Positions 6,743 to 46,923 of a stretch of DNA of 64,000 nucleotides are shown here, one piece after another; within the stretch, counting starts at the first letter, position 1; every line of letters begins with the position of its first letter. The stretch is from a virus: IMG/VR virus record IMGVR_UViG_3300035542_000215; one strand, given 5' to 3'. The translations under genes and the position numbers were made by a program. The notes below the pieces were generated by a model, which saw nothing but the letters and a program-made list of their open reading frames with translations, did not search any database and was not told the DNA's origin.

Positions 6743-7336
6743 TTATTCGTAAAAAACATGGTCTCCAATAGTTTTGCTGTAAGTAAGTGAATTTTCCATC
6801 CATAGTAAAGCTGATGAGTCTGCAATTTTTGGATTTACAAAATACAAAGAATCGCTTTTAAGTTCTTCATCCTTACTTTCTGTGTAAACAGTTAAAATTG
6901 CTAATTCTATTTCATCTAAATACCCATCTTTAATTACGGTATCCTTTATTTTGTTAGATGGTGAAAACTGTTTTGGTTGGTAAACAACATCGTGTATATT
7001 GTTTGGAAAATTTTCACTTTCGACTCTATTAAGTATTACCCTTACCACTTCCTTTTTTCCTTCTAACGGCTCACCCTTTGCTTCAAGATAGACTATTTTT
7101 TTTAATATTTCATAGTCTTTTGTTGCTTTGAAAAAATCATATCCATCTACAGTTACAAAATTGTTTTTTACAATCCTTTCTTCTCTTACTTTTGAGGGCT
7201 CTTCTTCTACCGTTTTTGATTCAACAACGGTAAAAGATTTAGAAGAAATCAGTACAACAATCATAACTATCATCAAAATTGCTGCTAAAGTGATTACGGC
7301 TTTTTCTGTTTGTTGTCCTATTTCTTTCATTCGCAT
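6743..7336 (-). CDS. Membrane-anchored cell wall hydrolase (SleB/CwlJ, Hydrolase_2 family)
   Basis: N-terminal TM segment; IVYLEAKGEPLEGKKEVVRVILNRV, VVYQPKQFS, SLYFVNP and IGDHVFY motifs. Confidence 0.88.
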   Translation of the reverse strand: MRMKEIGQQTEKAVITLAAILMIVMIVVLISSKSFTVVESKTVEEEPSKVREERIVKNNFVTVDGYDFFKATKDYEILKKIVYLEAKGEPLEGKKEVVRVILNRVESENFPNNIHDVVYQPKQFSPSNKIKDTVIKDGYLDEIELAILTVYTESKDEELKSDSLYFVNPKIADSSALLWMENSLTYSKTIGDHVFYE

Positions 7337-7439
7337 ATAATCCTCCTTGTTTTAAAGTGACTCATACACTCCTTTATTTTATGAATTATTATATGCATGA
7401 AGTTAATTTTATATTCCTTATATTGAATAAAATTAATTT

Positions 7440-7533
7440 TTGACGTTTTTTAGTTAAAATGATAGAATTAAGTACGGAACAAAAACAAATATGTTTTTAG
7501 CGAAAAGGTGCCTGCACTTTTTCGTATTTTTTT
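7440..7533 (+). ncRNA. Candidate ~60-nt small RNA with its own sigmaA promoter and terminator
   Basis: TTGACG(7440)-17-TAGAAT(7463); terminator GCGAAAAGGTG-CCTG-CACTTTTTCGT plus T-run at 7500-7533; no ORF. Confidence 0.5.
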
Positions 7534-7547
7534 TGTAAATCAACATC

Positions 7548-7673
7548 AAAAAAAACCCCTTCCGGGGTTTAATTTTTTTGCTTACCTGAGCCTTTCGGCC
7601 TTCCGATCCAGGTAAACTATTTTAAAGGAGCGACTTTCGTCTTGTTGATAAAGGATAGGAGGTCCTTTATCTA
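7548..7673 (-). ncRNA. Anti-leader/anti-SD small RNA, copy 1 (~125 nt)
   Basis: sigmaA promoter TTGACA(7706-7701)-16-TG.TATGAT(7684-7679). Transcript: 9-bp hairpin with loop CCUCCUA, GAC-GAAA-GUC hairpin, single-stranded GCUCCUUU, UUACCUG/CAGGUAA helix with a GCC-GAAA-GGC sub-helix, then terminator AAACCCC-GGAA-GGGGUUUUUUUU. No ORF. Confidence 0.8.
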
Positions 7674-7721
7674 TATTCATCATAACACAGCTAAAAAATC
7701 TGTCAATTTCAGATGGTTTAA

Positions 7722-7768
7722 GTGAACTACCACCACTTTCACTAAAGTTTAGAAGTGGTGGCTTCTAA
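7722..7768 (-). mobile_element. Miniature IS200/IS605-type single-hairpin element
   Basis: Minus strand TTAGAAGCCACCACTTCTAAAC...GAAAGTGGTGGTAGTTCAC: one hairpin ending in TTCAC, as in IS605 right ends. Confidence 0.55.
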
Positions 7769-7828
7769 CATCTTGTGTTAGAGCTTTTCCTGTTTCAAAG
7801 AGTTGTGCCTTATAATTAAAAAAAGACC

Positions 7829-10685
7829 TCAAGTTAATGAGATCTTTTCATCCAATTCTATTTCTTCTTCTAAACTTTCATAGGTTGTTTTCCCGTAGTA
7901 TACATTGCAAATATGCTTATATCCTTCTTCTACCCCGGCATTTGTTATAAGATAATTATCATTTTTTTTGTAAAAATGCATTGCCATTGGGTACTTGATT
8001 TGAGAGACAACCTTGTCTATATATTCTTTTAATTGTTTTTTTCCTTTTAATTTAATTTCCATATTCTTCTCCTTCATATAATCTCCATACTATTTCTTCT
8101 TTAAATTTGTACCTACTGATGCACAATATTCCCTTTTGATCTAGATCGGATATAATCATAAACCTAGGAGGGATGTTATACTTCGCAACAACTGCATCAT
8201 CACTGTACTGGAAGTTTTTTATTCCTGTAGCTGTTGTTAACCAGTGAGCATAAATCTTTTCGTCTTCAGCAATTTTTAGTTCTTTTCGTATGAATTTAAG
8301 TATTCGACCAGAAAGATCTTCCCTTGAATAATTATTCTCACTTGTTTTATTTAAAGGAGTTTCAAAACCATAAAGCCTTAAATTTTTAATAATGTTGGTG
8401 TTAACAGTATTATTAAACTCTTCTTTTATATATTTATCGAAATTTTCTATCTCCAGTTCTTCTATATCAATATTTTTGTATCCATGTTTTAAAAGCGTGA
8501 GTTCATATTGAGTTTTACTTTCATTTTTTCTTTTTAGGAATGTATTAATAATAAAGGCATCTAGTGAATCACTCTTGCTTTTAGCCCAAAGGGTTAGGCA
8601 GGTCTTTAACATTAACCTGCCTAAATATGTATTTCTATTAGGCCTTAACATAAGTTTCTTCCATTTTAAACATTTTGTTGCTTAAAACTAGCACGCCACC
8701 TGTACCTAAATCACTAGCTATTAAATACTTTTTTGGCAATGAATATTCTTGTATTTCAAAATCATCATCTACAATATAGTTTTCAAGAATACCGTTCATG
8801 GTAGTTAACCATTTTGCAAATATTTTTTCATTGTTTTTAAGTCCCATTTTTTTTCTTACAAAGGACATTACCTTTTCTATTATTTCTTCCTTCATTTCTT
8901 CAAATATGTATAAGTCTTTGTAAAACTCTTCAAGAGGCATTTTAAGCCCGTAATCCTCTAGTTTTTCTAAGATATCAATGTTTCCAAGTTCATAAAGTTC
9001 AAACTCTAATATTTTTTCAAAATCAACAACACCTGAGTCTCTAAATAATTTGTTATTATATCCTTTTTTTAGATTTTTTATCTGCACAGCTGTTTCGCTT
9101 TCTGGTGTTTCCCCTTGTATTTTTTCCATCATCCAAGGTTCATTTGCTAATTTTTGAAGTTCAAGTCTAGCTGAAATACTTTTTACCTTATTGATAATAT
9201 CCTGTTCTGTTTTTCCCATGGATAATATTTTTATCACCATTTCTTCAAATTTTTCTTCCATTTTATTTCTCCTCTATCCTTTTATTCCAATTATCTTCCC
9301 TGGATAATATGATTTTTGATCAGTCGCTACATACTTGTTAAATTCAATCAATTCATCTACCAGATCTTCCTTTCTTTTACTACTTAAAAGATAGTCTTCT
9401 ACCCATCTACTCATAAGGGCTTCCTTGAACTGGTATTTTGTAAAATCAAAAATAACAAGATTAGCATTTAGATATGCTTTTACATATGTGTGTTTTCTTA
9501 TTTTTTCACAACAACAGTCTTTACAGTTGTACTCACCATTCATCATCCTGTAATCAATATACTCATCTATATTATCAATACAATTGTTACATGGATTATC
9601 ATTTGCACTATAGTCTGGATGATTATAATGTCCCCTTATGACCTTTATGTCCCATTCTTTAAAGAATTCCATTCCTTCCATTTCTTCTGCCATTTCAAAA
9701 GCGATTTCTTCGCTTATATATGGAAAATCTTCAATTCCGAAACTCTTAATGAGTTTTTCTCTTAATTTTTCATTTAGAAATTTTCTTTCTTCTTTGAAAT
9801 TTGCAATCATTTTGTTGCTCCCTTAATGGTGTTTGAAATGCCTGGATAATAGCTGTTGTAATTAGATGTCATAAAATTATTAAAGCTCATTAATTCTTCA
9901 ACTATTTGCTTTTTTACTTCTTCATTAACCACAGACTTTTTTCTTTTTAATTCATTTATCTTTAATTGAATGTCACTCATCTTGTCTATATTGAATTGAT
10001 AGTTGGTGAAATCATAAATCATAACTGCTTCATCTAAGTAAGCTTTTATGTATGTATGCTGCTGCATCTTATTACAAGTACATCCTTCACAGAGATACTT
10101 ACCATTTTTTATATTTTTCTTATAATCTTCTAAATCACCTATATCTTCTTCACATAAAAGGTCTTTATCATAATCTGGGTGGTTATAGTGTCCTCTTTCG
10201 ACTATTATTGACCAATCTTCAAAAGCTTTTAACTTTTTCATTTCTTCAGCCATTGATAAAGATATTTCATGACAGATAAATGGAAAATTTTCATGGTCAA
10301 AATTCTCTAAGAGTAATTTCCTTATTTTCTTTTTAATCAAATCTCCTGCTTCATCATATTCAAAATCTAGATTATCAGGAAAGCTTCTTTTTGAAAGTTC
10401 AGAATCTAAAACATGTGTTATTGCAGACATACAGTCGTTAACTATTTTGTATTTTTCATAATCTTTGTTTTCTCTGCTTTCATGTATTGGTGGTCTGAAA
10501 TATAAAACTGCGGTATCTCTTAAGTTTCTCAGTTCCAAAAAGTCTTTTTCTTCGATTTCGCAAGTGCTTTTAATCTTTTCTATGTTTTCTTTGCTAGCGA
10601 AACCTCTTTCAATTTTTCCCTCATTCATTTCCTTAATCCAGTACCCGTAAATTTCTTTAATCATTTCTACATTGGATTTTTTCAT
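7829..10685 (-). CDS. Five-gene cassette containing two tandem paralog pairs (9807-10685/9274-9810 and 8638-9261/8052-8651) plus 7829-8077
   Basis: First pair shares FP.I..EI...MAEEM...RGHYNHPDY...HTY.KAYL...DFT.YQF; second pair shares A.WLTT..GI. Promoter at 10742. Confidence 0.75.
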
Positions 10686-10932
10686 TTGTATCCTCCTATT
10701 TTTTTGTGTTAAAAAACAACACTCCTTTAACTAAGTAGTTTATTATATGCAAAAGTTAAAGCTTATATTCCTAAAATTTCTTTTAAAAAAGACAATATTT
10801 TGGAGTAATTTCATGGCTTTTAGCAGCATCTTTGCTACGTCGTTTTCGGGTTGATAGTATTTTTGAAATGATAAGGTAGGATTTGACATTATCGATTCTA
10901 TAAAAAATCTCATCATAGAAAAATGTATTAAA

Positions 10933-10992
10933 GTGAACCTCTCCACCTAAAGCAGTAAAAAGATTTAGATAGAGCCTTCTTGCAAGTTTTAG
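10933..10992 (-). mobile_element. 60-bp miniature IS605-type element
   Basis: Minus strand TTTAT|CTAAAACTTGCAAGAAGG-hairpin-GGTTCAC; a close relative lies at 43739-43798. Confidence 0.6.
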
Positions 10993-10994
10993 AT

Positions 10995-11118
10995 AAAAAA
11001 AAGAGCCTATGGGGTAGGCCCTTCTGTTTACCTGTGCCTTTCGGCTTTCCGGTCCAGGCAAACTATTTTAAAGGAGCGACTTTCGTCTTTTGATAAAGGA
11101 TAGGAGGTCCTTTATCTA
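10995..11118 (-). ncRNA. Anti-leader/anti-SD small RNA, copy 2
   Basis: Near-identical core and promoter (TTGACA 11151-11146, TATGAT 11129-11124) to copy 1, but a different terminator (GGGCCUA/UAGGCUC plus U8). Substitutions mostly keep the pairing. Confidence 0.8.
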
Positions 11119-11246
11119 TATTCATCATAACACAGCTAAAAAATCTGTCAATTTCAGAAGGTTGTGTTTCAATTTTCATGAAAAAACCTAGGTTATATAA
11201 CCTAGGTTTTTGCTGCGAAGCGAATATATCAATTAAATTTAGATTT

Positions 11247-12397
11247 CTATGCTAATATTTTTTTCTTTTGGGTTTCTTTGATATAATCTATATAATAATT
11301 TAAGTTTTCAAATGGGCTTAAAACATCATCATCTTCTTCAAAGATAGATTCTAACCCGCTTGCTACCCATCTATCATTTTTATTGTCAAATATTTCAGTT
11401 TCTATCCAGTTGTTATTTTGTAAAAATAAAACCTTTTTGTTTTCTTTAAGAGTTTCATTATTTATAAACTCATATTTAACAACTTCTTCTAGTTCTTTGT
11501 CATCTTTTATATAAGAACCTAATAAATCGACTAACACTTCACTATTATTCTTATCTTTTACATATTCTTTCATTTCTCCATTTTCATAATATGTTCCGTT
11601 TACATCACCATAAACAGATACAAATATCTCAAATTCTTTATAAGTGATAGTTCCGATTGTTCCACCATACCATAAGCAGTCTTGCCTATTTTCCATTATT
11701 CTTTCTTCGTCTAATTCTATTTCCATTCCTAATTTTAAAGCATTTTCTTTAATTTCCTTTATTTTTTCTCTTATTTGTTCATTATTTAAATTCATTAGTC
11801 CCTCCTATTAATAATAAAATTCCACCATTTTTTCGTTTTTGTTATTCTCTTCATTTAAAGAATAAAATCCTAAATCTTCAGCTTCATAAGGATCTTTTTC
11901 AAAAGCAAATATTTCAACTTCTTCTACTGCTTTTTCTTCTATATATTCCTCAACTACTTTTCCGTTTTCTTTTAGCATTACAACTTTTATGTTTTTCATA
12001 ACAAAACTCTCCTTTATATGTTTTTTTATAAACTTTTTTCTGTTAAAAACTTTAGTTCTTCTTCATTATTTTTTATACAGTCTTTCATAGTAAAGCTAAC
12101 ATATTCTTGATTTAACAGTTTTTTATACCCATTTAAAATATCTTTTGGTTCGTAATCATATCCACAATAATTTATATATCTCTTTATGTTTTCTTCTGCA
12201 TCTTCTTTTGTAGATATTTTTTTGCTTTTGACATTTGTTTTGGATATATTTTCTTTTGCTCCTTGTAATTCAGATAATTGATTTTGCACTAATGAAATTA
12301 TTTTCATAATTCCACAGATTCCATCTCTTGATGCATTAATTTTGCATTTTTTATCAAAATACATACATTCTTCCTTTACGCAGCTTAATGGTTCCAA
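11247..12397 (-). CDS. Hypothetical cassette (12026-12397, 11808-11999, 11247-11795)
   Basis: ORFs with SDs downstream of promoter 12462 and its leader. Confidence 0.7.
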
Positions 12398-14766: not shown

Positions 14767-16583
14767 TTATTGTAAATAACAAATATCTCCATTAGGTGCT
14801 TCTATCATAACTGCCTTTTCATCCTGATTTAAAACTTTATACAGTTCACTGAGTTTTGATCCGTTTTCTTCTTCTGTTTCTATTCGAAGATACTCATCAA
14901 ATATCCTCACCTTGCAATTTACTTCCCAACAGTCTCTTCCTTCTCCGCCGCAGAGAGTATTTTTATTTTTGATTGCTTCAAATAAATCTTTGCTGCGAGA
15001 TCCTTTTTCTAGAATGTTGTTTTTCAAATATTCATGTGAAAAATATTGTAAGTCATCATCTACTCCAGAAGTTTTAAAATTTAACCAATAGTTATAAAGT
15101 GTATGAAGTGTATTTTTTTCATCTAACAATGCATCTATCATTTCTTCTTCCCAGATATTCCCGTCTTGAACTAAACAGTCAATTTCATTTTTCCACCCTA
15201 GTTCATAAATTCTTTCGCTTAATCCTTTTTTATCTAGTTTAGATGCTTCTTCTAGTAACTTGTTCCATTCTTTTGATACTTTCTCCTGCAATTGTTCTAA
15301 TTTTTCATCCATGTTTTATCTCCTTTTATTTATATAATTTATCAATTATATCCATGTTATGAAATTTAGATAGATATTTATCAACTTTTTCATCTGAGCA
15401 TTCATCATCTCTTATCATTTCATACAAAGTGTTAAGAGAATTCGGTCTTTTTAGTAAAAAATCTATAACATTTTCTTCTTGTATGCTTACATTTTGAAAA
15501 TGACAATAAATTAGGTCTATCCATCCGATAAAATGAGCATTAATCTTCAATCTTTCAGCATTTAAGCCTGATAAATTTTCAAACAAGCTGTTTCTCTCAT
15601 TTTTCATTTTCTCTCTTAATATTCTCATTTTTTCTTTTCTTCTTTCAACTGGCATATATTTATCCTCCTATTAATTAAGCTACTAATCTTTCGCTTAAAA
15701 ATTCTGATGTAAAATATTCTAAATCACTATCTACACCGGAAGTTTCAAATTTCAACCAATAGTCATAAAGAGTGTGGAGTGCATTTTTACTATCTAGTAA
15801 AACTTTTATCATTTCTTCATCCCAGATAGCACCGTTTTGTACCAAACAATCCATTTCAGCTTTCCAACCAATTTCATAGGATTTTTCTCCAAGTCCTTCT
15901 TTGTCTAACTTAACCATTTCTTCTAAAAATTCGTTAAATTCTTTTGATATTTTTTTTTGTAATTTTTCCAATTTTTTTTCTTCCATTTTTTCCTCCTATT
16001 GTTTTTTTGCAACAAAAGTTGCTCCTTTATATTAACTAATGTATTATATGCAATCCTATATTTTTATATTCCTTTTTAACAAAAAAAAGAAACAGCCGAA
16101 GCTGCTTCTCATGTATTAAATATTTCCTAACATATCTTCTAATTCAGTTATTTTCGATTTTGTGTATTCTATTTCCTTTTTTAATGAGTTAATTCTATTT
16201 TCCTGTTTATTATCTTCTTCTAAACACTGAATTATGCTATGAAGTTTCTTTTTAGTACTGTTTTTCCCCATTATTTTACTTAATTCTTCATATATGTAGT
16301 TTAAAGTATTTTCTTCGCTACTTAAAGATTTAGCAAATTCTGGATGAAATTTCGACTTGTTTTCTTCATTAAATACTCTTGCTGCATATTGAACTATTTC
16401 TGTTTTCATATGAAGTTCATAAGCATTTTCTCTTAATTTTAATCCTTCTTCTTTAAGACTTCCTATGTAGTTCTTGTATTCTTCTTCAATTTTTTCATTT
16501 AAATTTTCAAATACATTTTCGCCTTTTATTTCTTCCATTGTTTCATTCATTGTATTTTTCATTTTTATCTCCTTTTCTAACAT
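14767..16583 (-). CDS. Tandem DUF3848-like paralogs (14767-15312, 15326-15655, 15675-15986, 16116-16583)
   Basis: 14767 and 15675 share MdEKkLE.LQ.K.SKE.N..LEE..KLDK.GL.E..YE.GWK.E.DCLVQ.G.IWdEEMI..LLD.KN.LHTLY.YWL.F.TSGVD.DL. The others are more distant. Family name from recall. Confidence 0.55.
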
Positions 16584-22262: not shown

Positions 22263-22290
22263 TTGACAGATTTTTTAGCTGTGATAATCT
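22263..22290 (+). promoter_or_regulatory. sigmaA-type promoter sharing the sRNA promoter's -35 box and spacer
   Basis: TTGACAGATTTTTTAGCTGTG-A-TAATCT, in tandem upstream of motif promoter 22318. Confidence 0.7.
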
Positions 22291-29443: not shown

Positions 29444-29471
29444 TTGACAGATTTTTTAGCTGTGGTATATT
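29444..29471 (+). promoter_or_regulatory. sigmaA-type promoter sharing the sRNA promoter's -35 box and spacer
   Basis: TTGACAGATTTTTTAGCTGTG-G-TATATT, in tandem upstream of motif promoter 29498. Confidence 0.7.
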
Positions 29472-30118: not shown

Positions 30119-30400
30119 GTCAATAACCCCCTCCTAAATGCTAACGCATTTTGAGGAGGGAGCTTGTTACAAGAAAGCTCATATTGACTAGACTAAGCAT
30201 TTAATTGCTACGTTATAATAGCTATCACACCTTCAGATGATACCCTAGTCTGATGCACTGTGTAGGCACTGTAAACAATCCCGTGAGGTAGGGATAGTCA
30301 ACCTAGATTCTGACCTGAAAAGGCAAACTATTATAACATTGTCGAAGGGTAACTACTAGTTAGTATTCTAGAGCAGTGTAAATCGCTGCTGTAAAAATAC
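30119..30400 (+). ncRNA. omegaRNA (HEARO-type) of IscB
   Basis: Structured noncoding region upstream of iscB with typical segments (TTGACTAGACTAAG, CTACGTT, CCTAGTCTG, ACATTGTCGAAGGG); 3' boundary approximate. Confidence 0.8.
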
Positions 30401-30419
30401 AAAAATAAAAAAAGGAGTC

Positions 30420-31718
30420 TTGCTCATGAGAGTATTTGTAAAAAATATGGACAATAAAAACCTAATGCCTTGTAAGCCTAGTAAGGCTCGAAAATTACTC
30501 AAGGCTGATAGGGCGGAAATTGTAAGTTACAAACCTTTTACTATTAAGTTATTGTATAAAACATCTAATTATACTCAAAAAACAACATTAGCTGTAGATA
30601 CTGGTATGAAAAATATTGGAATAGCAGTTACAGTTAATAAAAACAAGGTTGTAGCTAAAGGAGAAATAGAATTAAGACAAGATGTAAAAACCAATATAGA
30701 CAGAAAAAGAACTTACAGAAGGTCAAGAAGAAATAGAAAAACAAGGTATAGACAACCAAGGTTTCAAAACAGAAAAAGAAATAAGGGATGGCTACCACCA
30801 AGCATCCAATCTAGGGTTGAGAGTACATTTTTTTGGATTGAAAAATTTCAAAACTTACTCCCAGATAATACATTAATTGTAGAATTAGGTAAATTTGATC
30901 CACACAAATTAATCAATCCAGAGATTGAAGGAAAAGAATATCAAATAGGACTAACAGCAGGCTATTATGATGTAAGGCATTTTGTTTTTGAAAGAGACAA
31001 TTATACCTGCCAAGTGTGCAAGAAATCAAAAAATAAGATTTTAAATACTCATCATATAGTTTATATTTCAAAAGGTGGTACTAACAGAGCAGATAATTTA
31101 ATAACAGTTTGCACAGATTGCCATACCTCTGAAAATCATAAAAAAGGTAAAATCTTGCATAAGTGGATGCTTGAAGGAAAAAAAGTTAAGAAGTATAAAG
31201 CACCAACTTTTATGAATATTGTACGCAAAAAGTTTTATCAACATTTCAAAAATATAAAAGTAACCTATGGATCAACTACAAAACCAAAACGAAAAGAAAT
31301 AGGTTTGGATAAAACCCATTTTAATGATGCTATTGCAATTGCGGATGTAAATGAAAACTTTGAAGATGAATGTTTTTCAAATTTCAAAATCAAACAATTC
31401 AGAAAAAAGAAAAGGTCTTTACATGAAGCAACTGCTAGAAAAGGACGAAAAACACCTAATAGTAATCAAAATAGAAATTCTAAAAACACCAAAAAGGTTA
31501 GTCATAAAAAATATGGGACATTTTATCTTAACGATAAGGTAAAAGTATTTGAAAAAATTGGGTTTATAAGTGGTTTTACAAGTGGTGGAGCTTACATTAA
31601 GGATATAGAAGGAAAATACTTAACAGTTCCTGATAAAGATTACAAACAAATAAGCTTGAAGCATATAACTTTTATAAACCATAGTAATAATTGGCAATTC
31701 ATCCCCTCCCTAAATTAA
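30420..31718 (+). CDS. iscB: RNA-guided endonuclease IscB
   Basis: PLMP-type N-terminus (NLMPCKPSKARKLL), RuvC-I LAVDTG, Arg-rich bridge helix, RuvC-II IVELGKFD, HNH C..C...HH...N..DNL..VC..CH, RuvC-III THFNDA. Confidence 0.93.
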   Translation: MLMRVFVKNMDNKNLMPCKPSKARKLLKADRAEIVSYKPFTIKLLYKTSNYTQKTTLAVDTGMKNIGIAVTVNKNKVVAKGEIELRQDVKTNIDRKRTYRRSRRNRKTRYRQPRFQNRKRNKGWLPPSIQSRVESTFFWIEKFQNLLPDNTLIVELGKFDPHKLINPEIEGKEYQIGLTAGYYDVRHFVFERDNYTCQVCKKSKNKILNTHHIVYISKGGTNRADNLITVCTDCHTSENHKKGKILHKWMLEGKKVKKYKAPTFMNIVRKKFYQHFKNIKVTYGSTTKPKRKEIGLDKTHFNDAIAIADVNENFEDECFSNFKIKQFRKKKRSLHEATARKGRKTPNSNQNRNSKNTKKVSHKKYGTFYLNDKVKVFEKIGFISGFTSGGAYIKDIEGKYLTVPDKDYKQISLKHITFINHSNNWQFIPSLN

Positions 31719-40630: not shown

Positions 40631-40942
40631 TTATTTTTCTAATATTTCTAGATATTCTTCTATTCTTTCTTTTCTTAACTCTTTTTTCAATTTTCTTATC
40701 TCAAGTATTTTCTCAAGCATTTTTTCGATATTTTGTCCTATTATCATATTCATAACCGGTTCATCTTTATTAGGACCTAATGTTGTAAAAAATACCTGGT
40801 ATGCATTTTTCTTTGTGTATGCTGTTATTACAAGCTCATAATCTTCTTCTAACCTTGTTATCTTATAATTTTCTCTAAGACTATCGCAGTAATTTTCAGC
40901 ATCTTCCCTATCGTCAAATTCAATTAATCCAAGCTCTTTCAT
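40631..40942 (-). CDS. Hypothetical protein, paralog of 41966-42289
   Basis: Shared I.F....A..Y...L...VITA.....YQV.F...G.NIEK.L.KILEIR. Confidence 0.7.
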   Translation of the reverse strand: MKELGLIEFDDREDAENYCDSLRENYKITRLEEDYELVITAYTKKNAYQVFFTTLGPNKDEPVMNMIIGQNIEKMLEKILEIRKLKKELRKERIEEYLEILEK

Positions 40943-41430
40943 TATTTTTCTCCTTTTAAATTTACTCCATATTTTTCAATAGTTTTTATCACTTCTTTAA
41001 ATGAATTGCTCCCTAAATTTCTTATTTGTTTTAATTCATGGGGATATAGTTTTGTGATATCTCCTAATGTTTCTATATCTGCTCTTCTTAAACAATTATA
41101 AGTTCTTGTAGACAATCCTAGTGCTTCTAAGGGATTAGAAAGTACAGAATCAATTGTTTCATAATCTAGTGCTTGTATCACATTGGGGATATCATAGTCA
41201 TACATTTTAGCTTGTTGTAAAAAATATGCTGCTCCTCCCAAACTAGAACTTAAAGTTTCTCCTTTTCCAGTATTTTCTATGCATTTATTAGCCAAATCCC
41301 GATTTATTGCAGCTGATTCTTTGCAATACTTCATAATGTCTGACACTTTAACATAATACTCTTTATATTTTACCATTATTTTCTCCTTTGTTTTGAAAAT
41401 TAACTTGCAAACTTGATATTTGTCCTCCAA
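40942..41430 (-). CDS. Protein with a C-terminal RNA polymerase alpha-CTD-like domain
   Basis: PLEALGLSTRTYNCLRRADIETLGDI...ELKQIRNLGSNSFKEV matches the RpoA CTD HhH pattern; no alpha-NTD. Confidence 0.8.
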   Translation of the reverse strand: MEDKYQVCKLIFKTKEKIMVKYKEYYVKVSDIMKYCKESAAINRDLANKCIENTGKGETLSSSLGGAAYFLQQAKMYDYDIPNVIQALDYETIDSVLSNPLEALGLSTRTYNCLRRADIETLGDITKLYPHELKQIRNLGSNSFKEVIKTIEKYGVNLKGEK

Positions 41431-43686: not shown

Positions 43687-43738
43687 GAACCCTTAACGAT
43701 TTTTTTTGAAATTCGCAGGGGGTTCTTTTATATTGCAA

Positions 43739-43798
43739 GTGAACTTCTCCACCTAAATAAAAACCAAGATTTAGATGGAGTCTTCTTGTAAGTCTTAG
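43739..43798 (-). mobile_element. 60-bp miniature IS605-type element
   Basis: Minus strand TTTAT|CTAAGACTTACAAGAAG-hairpin-AGTTCAC; same length and ends as 10933-10992. Confidence 0.6.
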
Positions 43799-43824
43799 AT
43801 AAAAAAAGGGCCGAAGCCCTCAAT

Positions 43825-46397: not shown

Positions 46398-46742
46398 TGG
46401 TGGAGCTGGTGGGATTTGAACCCACGTCCAAAAATATTTCCACAGGACTTTCTACGAACATAGTTCTCTTTATTCTTTAACTACATATATCAAAGAAAAC
46501 AAATCTATATGCAGCTATCTCAAGTTCTTTTGTATAGGGTCTGAGAGTCTCTAATACAGTTTTTTCGCAGTTAATGATACTCAATGTTGACAAGCGAAAA
46601 ATATCAACGTGAGCAGTCGTTTTTGAAGCGACAGTTTGTTTTTATACTATGCGTTTAGTTTAGTTTGTTAGTTTTTATGTTGACTAACTCAACAATTCGC
46701 TTATCCTGTTTTTATATCCTCGTCGAAACCATTTTCAACCCC
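46398..46742 (-). ncRNA. ssrA: tmRNA (345 nt) with a one-codon tag ORF
   Basis: 5' GGGGUUG pairs with CAGCUCC-ACCA including the G3-U alanine wobble; GGUUUCGAC near the 5' end; T-arm GUGGG-UUCAAAU-CCCAC; pk1 GUUGA/UCAAC plus GUUAG/CUAAC; UAAAC then GCA UAG at 46652-46647. Confidence 0.92.
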
Positions 46743-46923
46743 AATTTATTTCTTTTAAATCCTCATCTTTTCATAATCATACTCTCCTTTTTTTTATTTA
46801 CACATAAGTGCTCCTTAAACATCTAATCTATTATATGCAAATATTACTTTTTATATTCGTTTTTTGAAAATAAAAAAAACACCCCTTTGAAAAAAATCAA
46901 AAAGGTGTTTAAAAATTTGATTA

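Follow-up and report, generated by a model that had tools for sequence, protein, structure and literature searches.

What does the minus strand at positions 10995-11151 of this viral element encode, and, if it carries the second copy of a gene for a small RNA (sRNA), what would two such RNAs do for the element? We addressed these questions from the anatomy of the locus, from its variation between copies and relatives, and from its complementarity to the other transcripts of the window, i.e., the whole stretch of 64,000 nucleotides that was analysed (IMG/VR record IMGVR_UViG_3300035542_000215). The element is low in GC (28%) and phage-plasmid-like. Its Rep3 protein is nearest to those of Clostridium and Bacillus plasmids, it has YopX and other genes common to SPbeta-like phages, and its ligase shares 37% identity with the one of Clostridium phage c-st, which together make a Firmicute-type host plausible. 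To the left (L020) and to the right (L018) of the window, the element further has genes for a RelB/YafQ toxin-antitoxin pair, a type III-like methylase with a helicase-nuclease, two ParA, one ParB, and a Rep3 initiator. It thus replicates as a plasmid, with genes in common with SPbeta-like and c-st-like phages. Metagenomes of oil fields, the subsurface, wastewater, and aquatic habitats contain the element, across about 15 studies.

Anatomy of the two predicted sRNA genes

The locus has the layout of a complete and insulated sRNA gene, with a promoter, three predicted helices, and its own terminator (Table 1). The near-consensus promoter, of the sigma-70 type, is identical to the one of the other copy (hereafter copy 1) at 7679-7706 (-), with which it ties as the best promoter-like site of the region 7300-11400. 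We placed the transcription start (~11117) 7-8 nt past the -10 and the 3' end at the U-tract. The predicted fold has a free energy of -42.0 kcal/mol, compared with -26.3 in shuffled sequences (z -4.3); copy 1 is predicted to form the same three hairpins and terminator with -41.7 kcal/mol (z about -4.3). Two pyrimidine boxes, the CCUCCUA loop of hairpin 1 and, 23-24 nt further 3', GCUCCUUU, are predicted to be unpaired in both copies, with probabilities between 0.85 and 1.00 (for GCUCCUUU, 0.85 in copy 2 and 0.93 in copy 1). Upstream of the promoter, the preceding gene ends in a palindromic hairpin with A and T runs on its flanks (11182-11211), which would shield copy 2 from read-through.

Table 1. 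Positions of the sRNA genes and of the features discussed with them.
Feature	Position	Strand	Description
sRNA copy 1	7548-7706	-	Promoter, RNA, own terminator
sRNA copy 2, promoter	11124-11151	-	TTGACA, 16-nt spacer, TG-n-TATGAT; 11 of 12 consensus positions
sRNA copy 2, transcript	10995-11117	-	Predicted, ~120 nt; approximate ends
Hairpin 1	11092-11116	-	9-bp stem, 7-nt loop CCUCCUA; near predicted 5' end
Loop of hairpin 1	11101-11107	-	TAGGAGG on the plus strand; predicted unpaired probability 1.00
Hairpin 2	11078-11087	-	GAC-GAAA-GUC
Single-stranded box	11070-11077	-	GCUCCUUU, complement of AAAGGAGC
Helix 3	11026-11063	-	9-bp outer stem, internal loop, inner GCC-GAAA-GGC hairpin
Intrinsic terminator of copy 2	10995-11025	-	11-pair stem, then U8
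Palindromic hairpin	11182-11211		A/T runs on flanks; self-complementary, matches on both strands
Regulon leader nearest downstream of copy 2	10689-10733	-	AAGGAG(U), hairpin, A-rich tract, UAGGAGG
Regulon leader with strongest predicted pairing to the sRNA	15989-16033	-	-35.6 kcal/mol
TTGACAGATTTTTTAGCTGTG, promoter of copy 1	7686-7706	-	
TTGACAGATTTTTTAGCTGTG, promoter of copy 2	11131-11151	-	
TTGACAGATTTTTTAGCTGTG, third occurrence	22263-22283	+	~35 nt upstream of a regulon promoter
TTGACAGATTTTTTAGCTGTG, fourth occurrence	29444-29464	+	~35 nt upstream of a regulon promoter

The only open reading frames overlapping copy 2 are one of 92 aa from 11061 and a 38-aa gene call, neither of which is kept in copy 1. 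We rejected a coding role because the plus-strand TTG frame over the hairpin and the minus-strand 92-aa frame from helix 3 are not conserved between copies and run across terminators. A type I toxin-antitoxin was also rejected, as the one mini-ORF close by (15 aa on the plus strand, near 7491) lacks a Shine-Dalgarno sequence (SD). The locus thus shows the generic features of an independent sRNA gene, namely its own promoter and terminator, no conserved ORF, and a stable predicted fold, and we consider it very probable that both loci are genuine sRNA genes. The sequencing runs found to hold the locus included no RNA run. A further mini-unit converges on copy 1 at 7440-7535 (+), with TTGACG-17-TAGAAT plus a TG and, after about 55 nt, a terminator of 11 pairs. 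This unit is possibly a further small RNA gene, and the several changes that it shows in relatives indicate weak conservation.

Variation between copies and recombination at the locus

According to the pairwise alignment of the two copies, identity begins about 9 nt upstream of the -35. The original prediction held that the promoter, the anti-SD hairpin, the GAAA hairpin, and GCUCCUUU were essentially the same in both copies, and the alignment agrees: there is no substitution through the promoter, hairpins 1 and 2, and GCUCCUUU, and the sole difference across the promoter and the first 55 nt is a 1-nt indel, one C missing from the linker that joins hairpins 1 and 2. The 25-mer of hairpin 1 occurs exactly twice in the window (7647-7671 and 11092-11116), when shuffles lead one to expect none. 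All six substitutions lie within helix 3, where the differences had been said to cluster. In its outer stem, the change from UUUACCUG in copy 1 to UUUGCCUG in copy 2 turns an A-U pair into G-U, and a second change turns U-G into U-A; the inner GCC-GAAA-GGC is kept in both, and a possible fourth pair (G-U in copy 1) is absent from copy 2. If substitutions fell uniformly, finding six of six in the 38 helix-3 columns of the ~142 aligned would have a probability of ~4e-4, a value to be read with the region having been picked post hoc. Beyond helix 3, the terminators and flanks are unrelated and cannot be aligned, so the earlier statement that the two terminators have nothing in common also stands, as does every other detail of that description open to checking. 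The two promoters are identical over 45 nt, which makes it unlikely that the siblings are differentially regulated.

A third natural variant comes from L012, a Logan contig of a relative that spans the whole sRNA gene. The gene upstream of its sRNA is the one preceding copy 1, and the adjoining upstream flank resembles copy 1 as well. From the body of the RNA through the terminator to the downstream cassette, it resembles copy 2. Within the RNA, a single change sets it apart from copy 2, a C in place of U in the 3' arm of helix 3. One pair of this helix is consequently A-U in copy 1, G-U in copy 2, and G-C in L012, and another is U-G, U-A, and U-A, respectively, with hairpin 2 and both boxes, the CCUCCUA loop being one of them, invariant in the three sequences. 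The A-U/G-U/G-C series suggests that the fold is being kept, with the little power that three sequences afford: one pair changed on both sides and one on a single side. Helices 1-3 are paired in every cell of this comparison, and 340 of 500 shuffles reach the observed covariation score. All three stem changes are transitions, which keep pairing by chance in half or more of the cases. The check for structural conservation among homologues, set with the original prediction, has the compensatory series at one pair in its favour, with a covariation that is not statistically significant in three sequences. A stronger argument for a kept structure than covariation is the distribution of the changes, since all six substitutions fall within 38 columns and the remaining ~100 have none.

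Both copy types are found in relatives from several studies, in which the neighbouring coding DNA differs by 2-10%. In one of them (L023, 90% identical), both promoter boxes (-35 and -10) are kept, as is the RNA over its first 10 nt, there are two changes in the promoter spacer, and the contig ends at the repeat. We found no sRNA homologues beyond relatives that are near-identical in the sRNA, and no further copy in the 5.4 kb to the left and 0.8 kb to the right of the window (the element is of at least 110 kb).

The locus also recombines. Hybrid junctions of the L012 type (11162/3 joined to 7815/8) recur on contigs from three more sequencing runs, which belong to different studies, and short-read assemblies regularly break at the sRNA repeat. 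These observations indicate that the copies exchange sequence, or that they enclose a block which is duplicated or reordered in relatives. The perfect identity of their 5' halves could therefore rest partly on gene conversion and not on purifying selection alone. The proposal that both copies are under selection as RNAs holds in part: copy 2 is complete and apparently functional and its changes spare the fold, but the 5' identity may stem from recombination. One could go further and regard the second copy as a by-product of cassette recombination, without selection for two, in which the sRNA gene, located at cassette boundaries, was duplicated together with a 3.4-kb block and gene conversion maintains the likeness. 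The hybrid arrangement with the upstream gene of copy 1 and a copy-2-type body and downstream cassette, seen in L012 and in three other metagenomes, speaks for this, as do the assembly breaks and the nature of the stretch past terminator 2, which is a dispersed repeat. Yet, both copies keep a perfect promoter, boxes, fold, and strong terminator despite six changes in helix 3 and unrelated terminators and flanks, and both types persist in relatives from several studies, so we regard the by-product as rather improbable. It concerns the copy number and not the role of the RNA, and can be compatible with an action of the RNA on leaders as discussed below.

A non-coding module of ~70 nt ending in GGTGGAGAGGTTCACTT lies at 10931-11001 (-) and 43737-43807 (-), with a weaker version at 7722-7815 (-). 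It sits right after three different terminators, two of its copies are 84-90% identical, and an 84-nt piece of the one upstream of copy 1 is missing from L012. This module could be a site of inter-cassette recombination or a regulatory site.

Database searches returned no family for the RNA. With Rfam 15 at gathering thresholds, the whole window gave only the transfer-messenger RNA (tmRNA) and HEARO. A permissive Rfam search of 7400-11400 gave nothing for copy 2 and, for copy 1, only a sub-threshold Atu_C8 match (32 bits vs. a threshold of 50) that falls mostly on the terminator. The HEARO/omega RNA (127 bits) adjoins its own intact IscB (RRXRR and HNH, 432 aa) at 30119-31718 (+), in a region of regulon cassettes. 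Phage and plasmid collections contained no BLASTN match to 7400-11400, and in IMG/VR neither the exact-core sRNA patterns nor the pattern of the regulon promoter (see below) had any. A neighbouring protein has no relative in IMG/VR, and the neighbouring 292-aa protein matches only itself among 5.8 billion sequences. The two-box pattern had eight matches in JGI metagenome contigs and two in GTDB genomes, all of them set aside as chance hits in GC-rich or coding DNA. The sRNA belongs to no catalogued family and is so far known from a single rare lineage of elements.

A bipartite match to the leaders of a regulon

The boxes of the sRNA acquire a possible meaning when they are set beside a family of cassettes that extends over most of the window (215-55695, both strands). 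At least 26 of these cassettes have in common the promoter GGAATATAAA-N10-TGCATATAATA and a leader of stereotyped layout with, in order, AAGGAG(C/U), a hairpin, an A-rich tract, AGGAGG, and the start codon. The first box lies 12-16 nt past the -10 in the 26 leaders, a few nt from the predicted 5' end of the mRNA, and its last 1-2 nt fall inside the leader hairpin. In 25 of 26 leaders, as compared with 4.5 of 26 in shuffles, this hairpin (at least 4 bp) begins 0-2 nt from the last G of GGAG, and in 24 it begins exactly there; its arms have 16 different sequences. By these predicted pairs, the leader is a conserved structured element in its own right, with covarying hairpin arms. It is a candidate for, e.g., a 5' stabiliser or a protein-binding site.

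The regulon includes genes for ThyX, a cell-wall hydrolase, ribonucleotide reductase, the tmRNA, and many ORFans. The tmRNA of the element is at 46398-46859 (-) (Rfam, 138.7 bits), with a regulon promoter and a regulon-type leader at 46780-46859; it would thus be co-regulated with the cassette genes and might carry a target of the sRNA. The leader with the strongest predicted pairing precedes the gene 15675-15986, within a region (14767-16583, -) that holds three neighbouring paralogous DUF3848 genes; these include a direct repeat of 280 nt (15026-15305 and 15697-15976, 74% identity). The regulon promoter has no TTGACA-type -35, and therefore probably needs a factor encoded by the element. Pfam scans of ~60 ORFs of the window gave no sigma factor and no Hfq or other RNA chaperone. 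At 40942-41430 (-), the window encodes a 162-aa protein whose N-terminal part has no assignment and which ends in an RNA polymerase alpha C-terminal domain (Pfam E = 1.5e-18), a candidate, by its domain, for a modifier of host transcription that is possibly tied to the regulon promoters.

The sRNA genes and the regulon also share a promoter-associated element. The 21-mer TTGACAGATTTTTTAGCTGTG, which covers the -35 and the whole spacer of the sRNA promoters, occurs exactly four times in the window (Table 1). The two occurrences outside the sRNA genes precede the regulon promoters of a phrog_4915 gene and of a 45-aa ORF. The conservation of the spacer, with its short inverted repeats (TCTG..CAGA..CTGT), suggests a putative shared operator.

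A strict form of the leader grammar, AAGGAG[CT]-N14-30-AGGAGG, matches 20 times in the window when 0.03 matches are expected under a first-order Markov model. Eighteen of these are regulon leaders (the relaxed pattern gives 26), and the remaining two fall on the sRNA genes themselves, read on the plus strand (7625-7662 and 11071-11107). The plus strands were rejected as leaders themselves, since no regulon promoter precedes them and no start codon follows their AGGAGG. At the level of sequence, the sRNA boxes are then the exact antisense of the leader grammar, in the same order and with comparable spacing: AAAGGAG(C/U) and UAGGAGG are 19-30 nt apart in the leaders, and their complements 23-24 nt in the sRNA. 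Part of this match is generic, since any CU-rich RNA complements SD sequences. We compared the predicted pairing of the first 60 nt of the sRNA between 21 regulon starts and the 68 other SD-bearing starts of the window. The medians are -26.1 and -17.75 kcal/mol, respectively (Mann-Whitney p = 6e-7), for duplex energies that leave out the cost of opening structures and the geometry of a contact between a loop and a strand.

This comparison bears on the possibility that the RNA is a general mimic of the 3' end of 16S rRNA. The two boxes, which are 7-mers of the Firmicute 16S 3' end, would then be partial anti-SD copies (ACCUCCU, CUCCUUU) that titrate SDs broadly, including those of host mRNAs, for host shut-off or as a global damper. 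Both boxes do resemble the anti-SD, the CCUCCUA loop is fully exposed in the predicted fold, and two gene copies with a near-consensus promoter suggest high abundance. However, a mimic predicts no preference for the leaders of the element, whereas ordinary SD-bearing starts pair much less well, and the order and spacing of the boxes match a bipartite grammar that the window contains only in the element's own leaders. The A at the end of the loop pairs with the U of UAGGAGG, present in 10 of 26 leaders, where 16S has a U. Moreover, the strong SDs of the element itself would be the first victims, and it is implausible that one sRNA titrates all cellular SDs stoichiometrically. The mimic is for these reasons less likely than an action on the leaders, and we consider it unlikely in absolute terms.

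The RNA might instead pair with no leader at all, and be a protein-binding or sponge RNA, or act in cis on antitermination into the downstream cassettes. The put RNAs of phage HK022, which are also in two copies behind early promoters, act in this way on the transcribing polymerase. Here too, there are two copies, each straight behind a strong promoter and upstream of co-oriented genes, and the RNA has two GAAA tetraloops and a conserved scaffold helix of unexplained role. Against this, a strong intrinsic terminator with U8 closes each copy, separate regulon promoters serve the downstream genes, and there is no resemblance to put or to other antitermination RNAs in Rfam. A role of either kind would also leave the exact bipartite complementarity unexplained, and we judge it quite unlikely.

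Known systems and a possible mode of action

In kind, the sRNA pair would belong with the trans-acting sRNAs directed against ribosome-binding sites. The functionally closest system is c4 of phages P1 and P7 (RF01695), to which the CI RNA of the satellite phage P4 may be added. The c4 RNA is a trans-acting RNA of a plasmid-prophage in which two exposed segments pair with two sites of a leader, one of them over the ribosome-binding site, and thereby hold down lytic functions; it arises by processing of a longer transcript and has a single operon (icd-ant) under its control. The RNAs described here likewise have two exposed segments complementary to two sites of a leader, one at the ribosome-binding site. 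This is a functional analogy only, and the c4 model gives no match even at E <= 10. Unlike c4, the sRNA is encoded by stand-alone genes with promoter and terminator, in two copies, faces at least 26 separate target transcripts, and belongs to a Firmicute-like instead of an enterobacterial type of host.

Firmicutes have comparable regulators. LhrC1-5 of Listeria, RsaE/RoxS, and RNAIII of Staphylococcus aureus use C/U-rich motifs in loops or single strands to bind SD regions; there are several sibling copies of LhrC, and RNAIII contacts the rot mRNA at two sites at once. Their motifs are UCCC or CCCC, and their targets are scattered host genes without a common leader architecture. The motifs of the pair described here, CCUCCUA and GCUCCUUU, are in contrast to those of LhrC and RsaE full anti-SD heptamers, and, unlike in all three systems, a mobile element encodes the RNAs, which match its own stereotyped leaders. 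The Rfam models of the LhrC and RsaE type do not match the sRNA. Paralogous sRNAs with identical seeds and diverged scaffolds or terminators are known from Qrr1-5, PrrF1/2, and OmrA/B, in which they serve dosage or differential regulation. These are chromosomal and Hfq-dependent RNAs of Proteobacteria, whereas the present pair is borne by an element and has its 45 nt of promoter identity.

On the target side, the leaders recall the STAB-SD of cry3A in Bacillus thuringiensis, where a 30S subunit bound at a 5'-proximal SD-like box blocks RNase J1 (PMC4113751). The regulon leaders also carry a non-initiating SD-like box near the 5' end of the mRNA. In contrast to cry3A, a covarying hairpin comes after this box, which is shared by at least 26 leaders, where a stabilising function is presumed. 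We know of no sRNA that competes at a STAB-SD.

If these parallels hold, one sRNA molecule would pair simultaneously with both purine boxes of one leader. At UAGGAGG, the true SD, it would compete with the 30S subunit and block translation; at the 5'-proximal box, it would likewise compete with the 30S. By analogy with STAB-SDs, this second box may guard the mRNA from 5'-to-3' decay, in which case binding of the sRNA would also lower mRNA stability. The host polymerase would read the strong sigma-A-like promoters of the sRNA genes, either while the element is a plasmid or prophage or as soon as it has entered the cell, and the RNA so made would keep the transcripts of the regulon silent. The identity of the targeting modules, with differences confined to the scaffold helix and the terminator, indicates that the copies are redundant in specificity, and the two would most likely supply enough RNA for dozens of abundant targets. 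Stoichiometric action on many targets creates a need for dosage, which two copies with near-consensus promoters would fit. We give about even chances to the proposal as a whole, that these are sibling trans-acting sRNAs against the leaders, alike in their targeting modules, which were duplicated for dosage and recombine with each other, and consider the bipartite anti-leader mechanism, as read from the complementarity, equally open to either outcome. A more ambitious proposal, that the pair is a master post-transcriptional repressor or 'RNA immunity factor' silencing at least 26 cassette transcripts through both SD-like boxes and stripping them of STAB-SD-type protection, is tentative and has, in our view, somewhat more against it than for it.

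A recent review of phage sRNAs describes regulators that act on one or a few targets (PMC12197685). The regulon leaders analysed here would be at odds with such a narrow range. To our knowledge, a phage-plasmid that controls a whole regulon with one family of anti-leader RNAs has not been described among elements of Firmicutes. Copy 2 provides the sole comparative evidence for the sRNA: it reveals that promoter, pyrimidine boxes, and hairpins 1 and 2 are untouched, and that helix 3 is a scaffold that may drift with its pairs kept. If the anti-leader mechanism is true, it would be a compact and portable one, by which a leader of 45 nt and an RNA of 120 nt switch dozens of genes off together. 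It would also provide a natural test of whether RNA can regulate SD-like stabilisers close to the 5' end of mRNAs.
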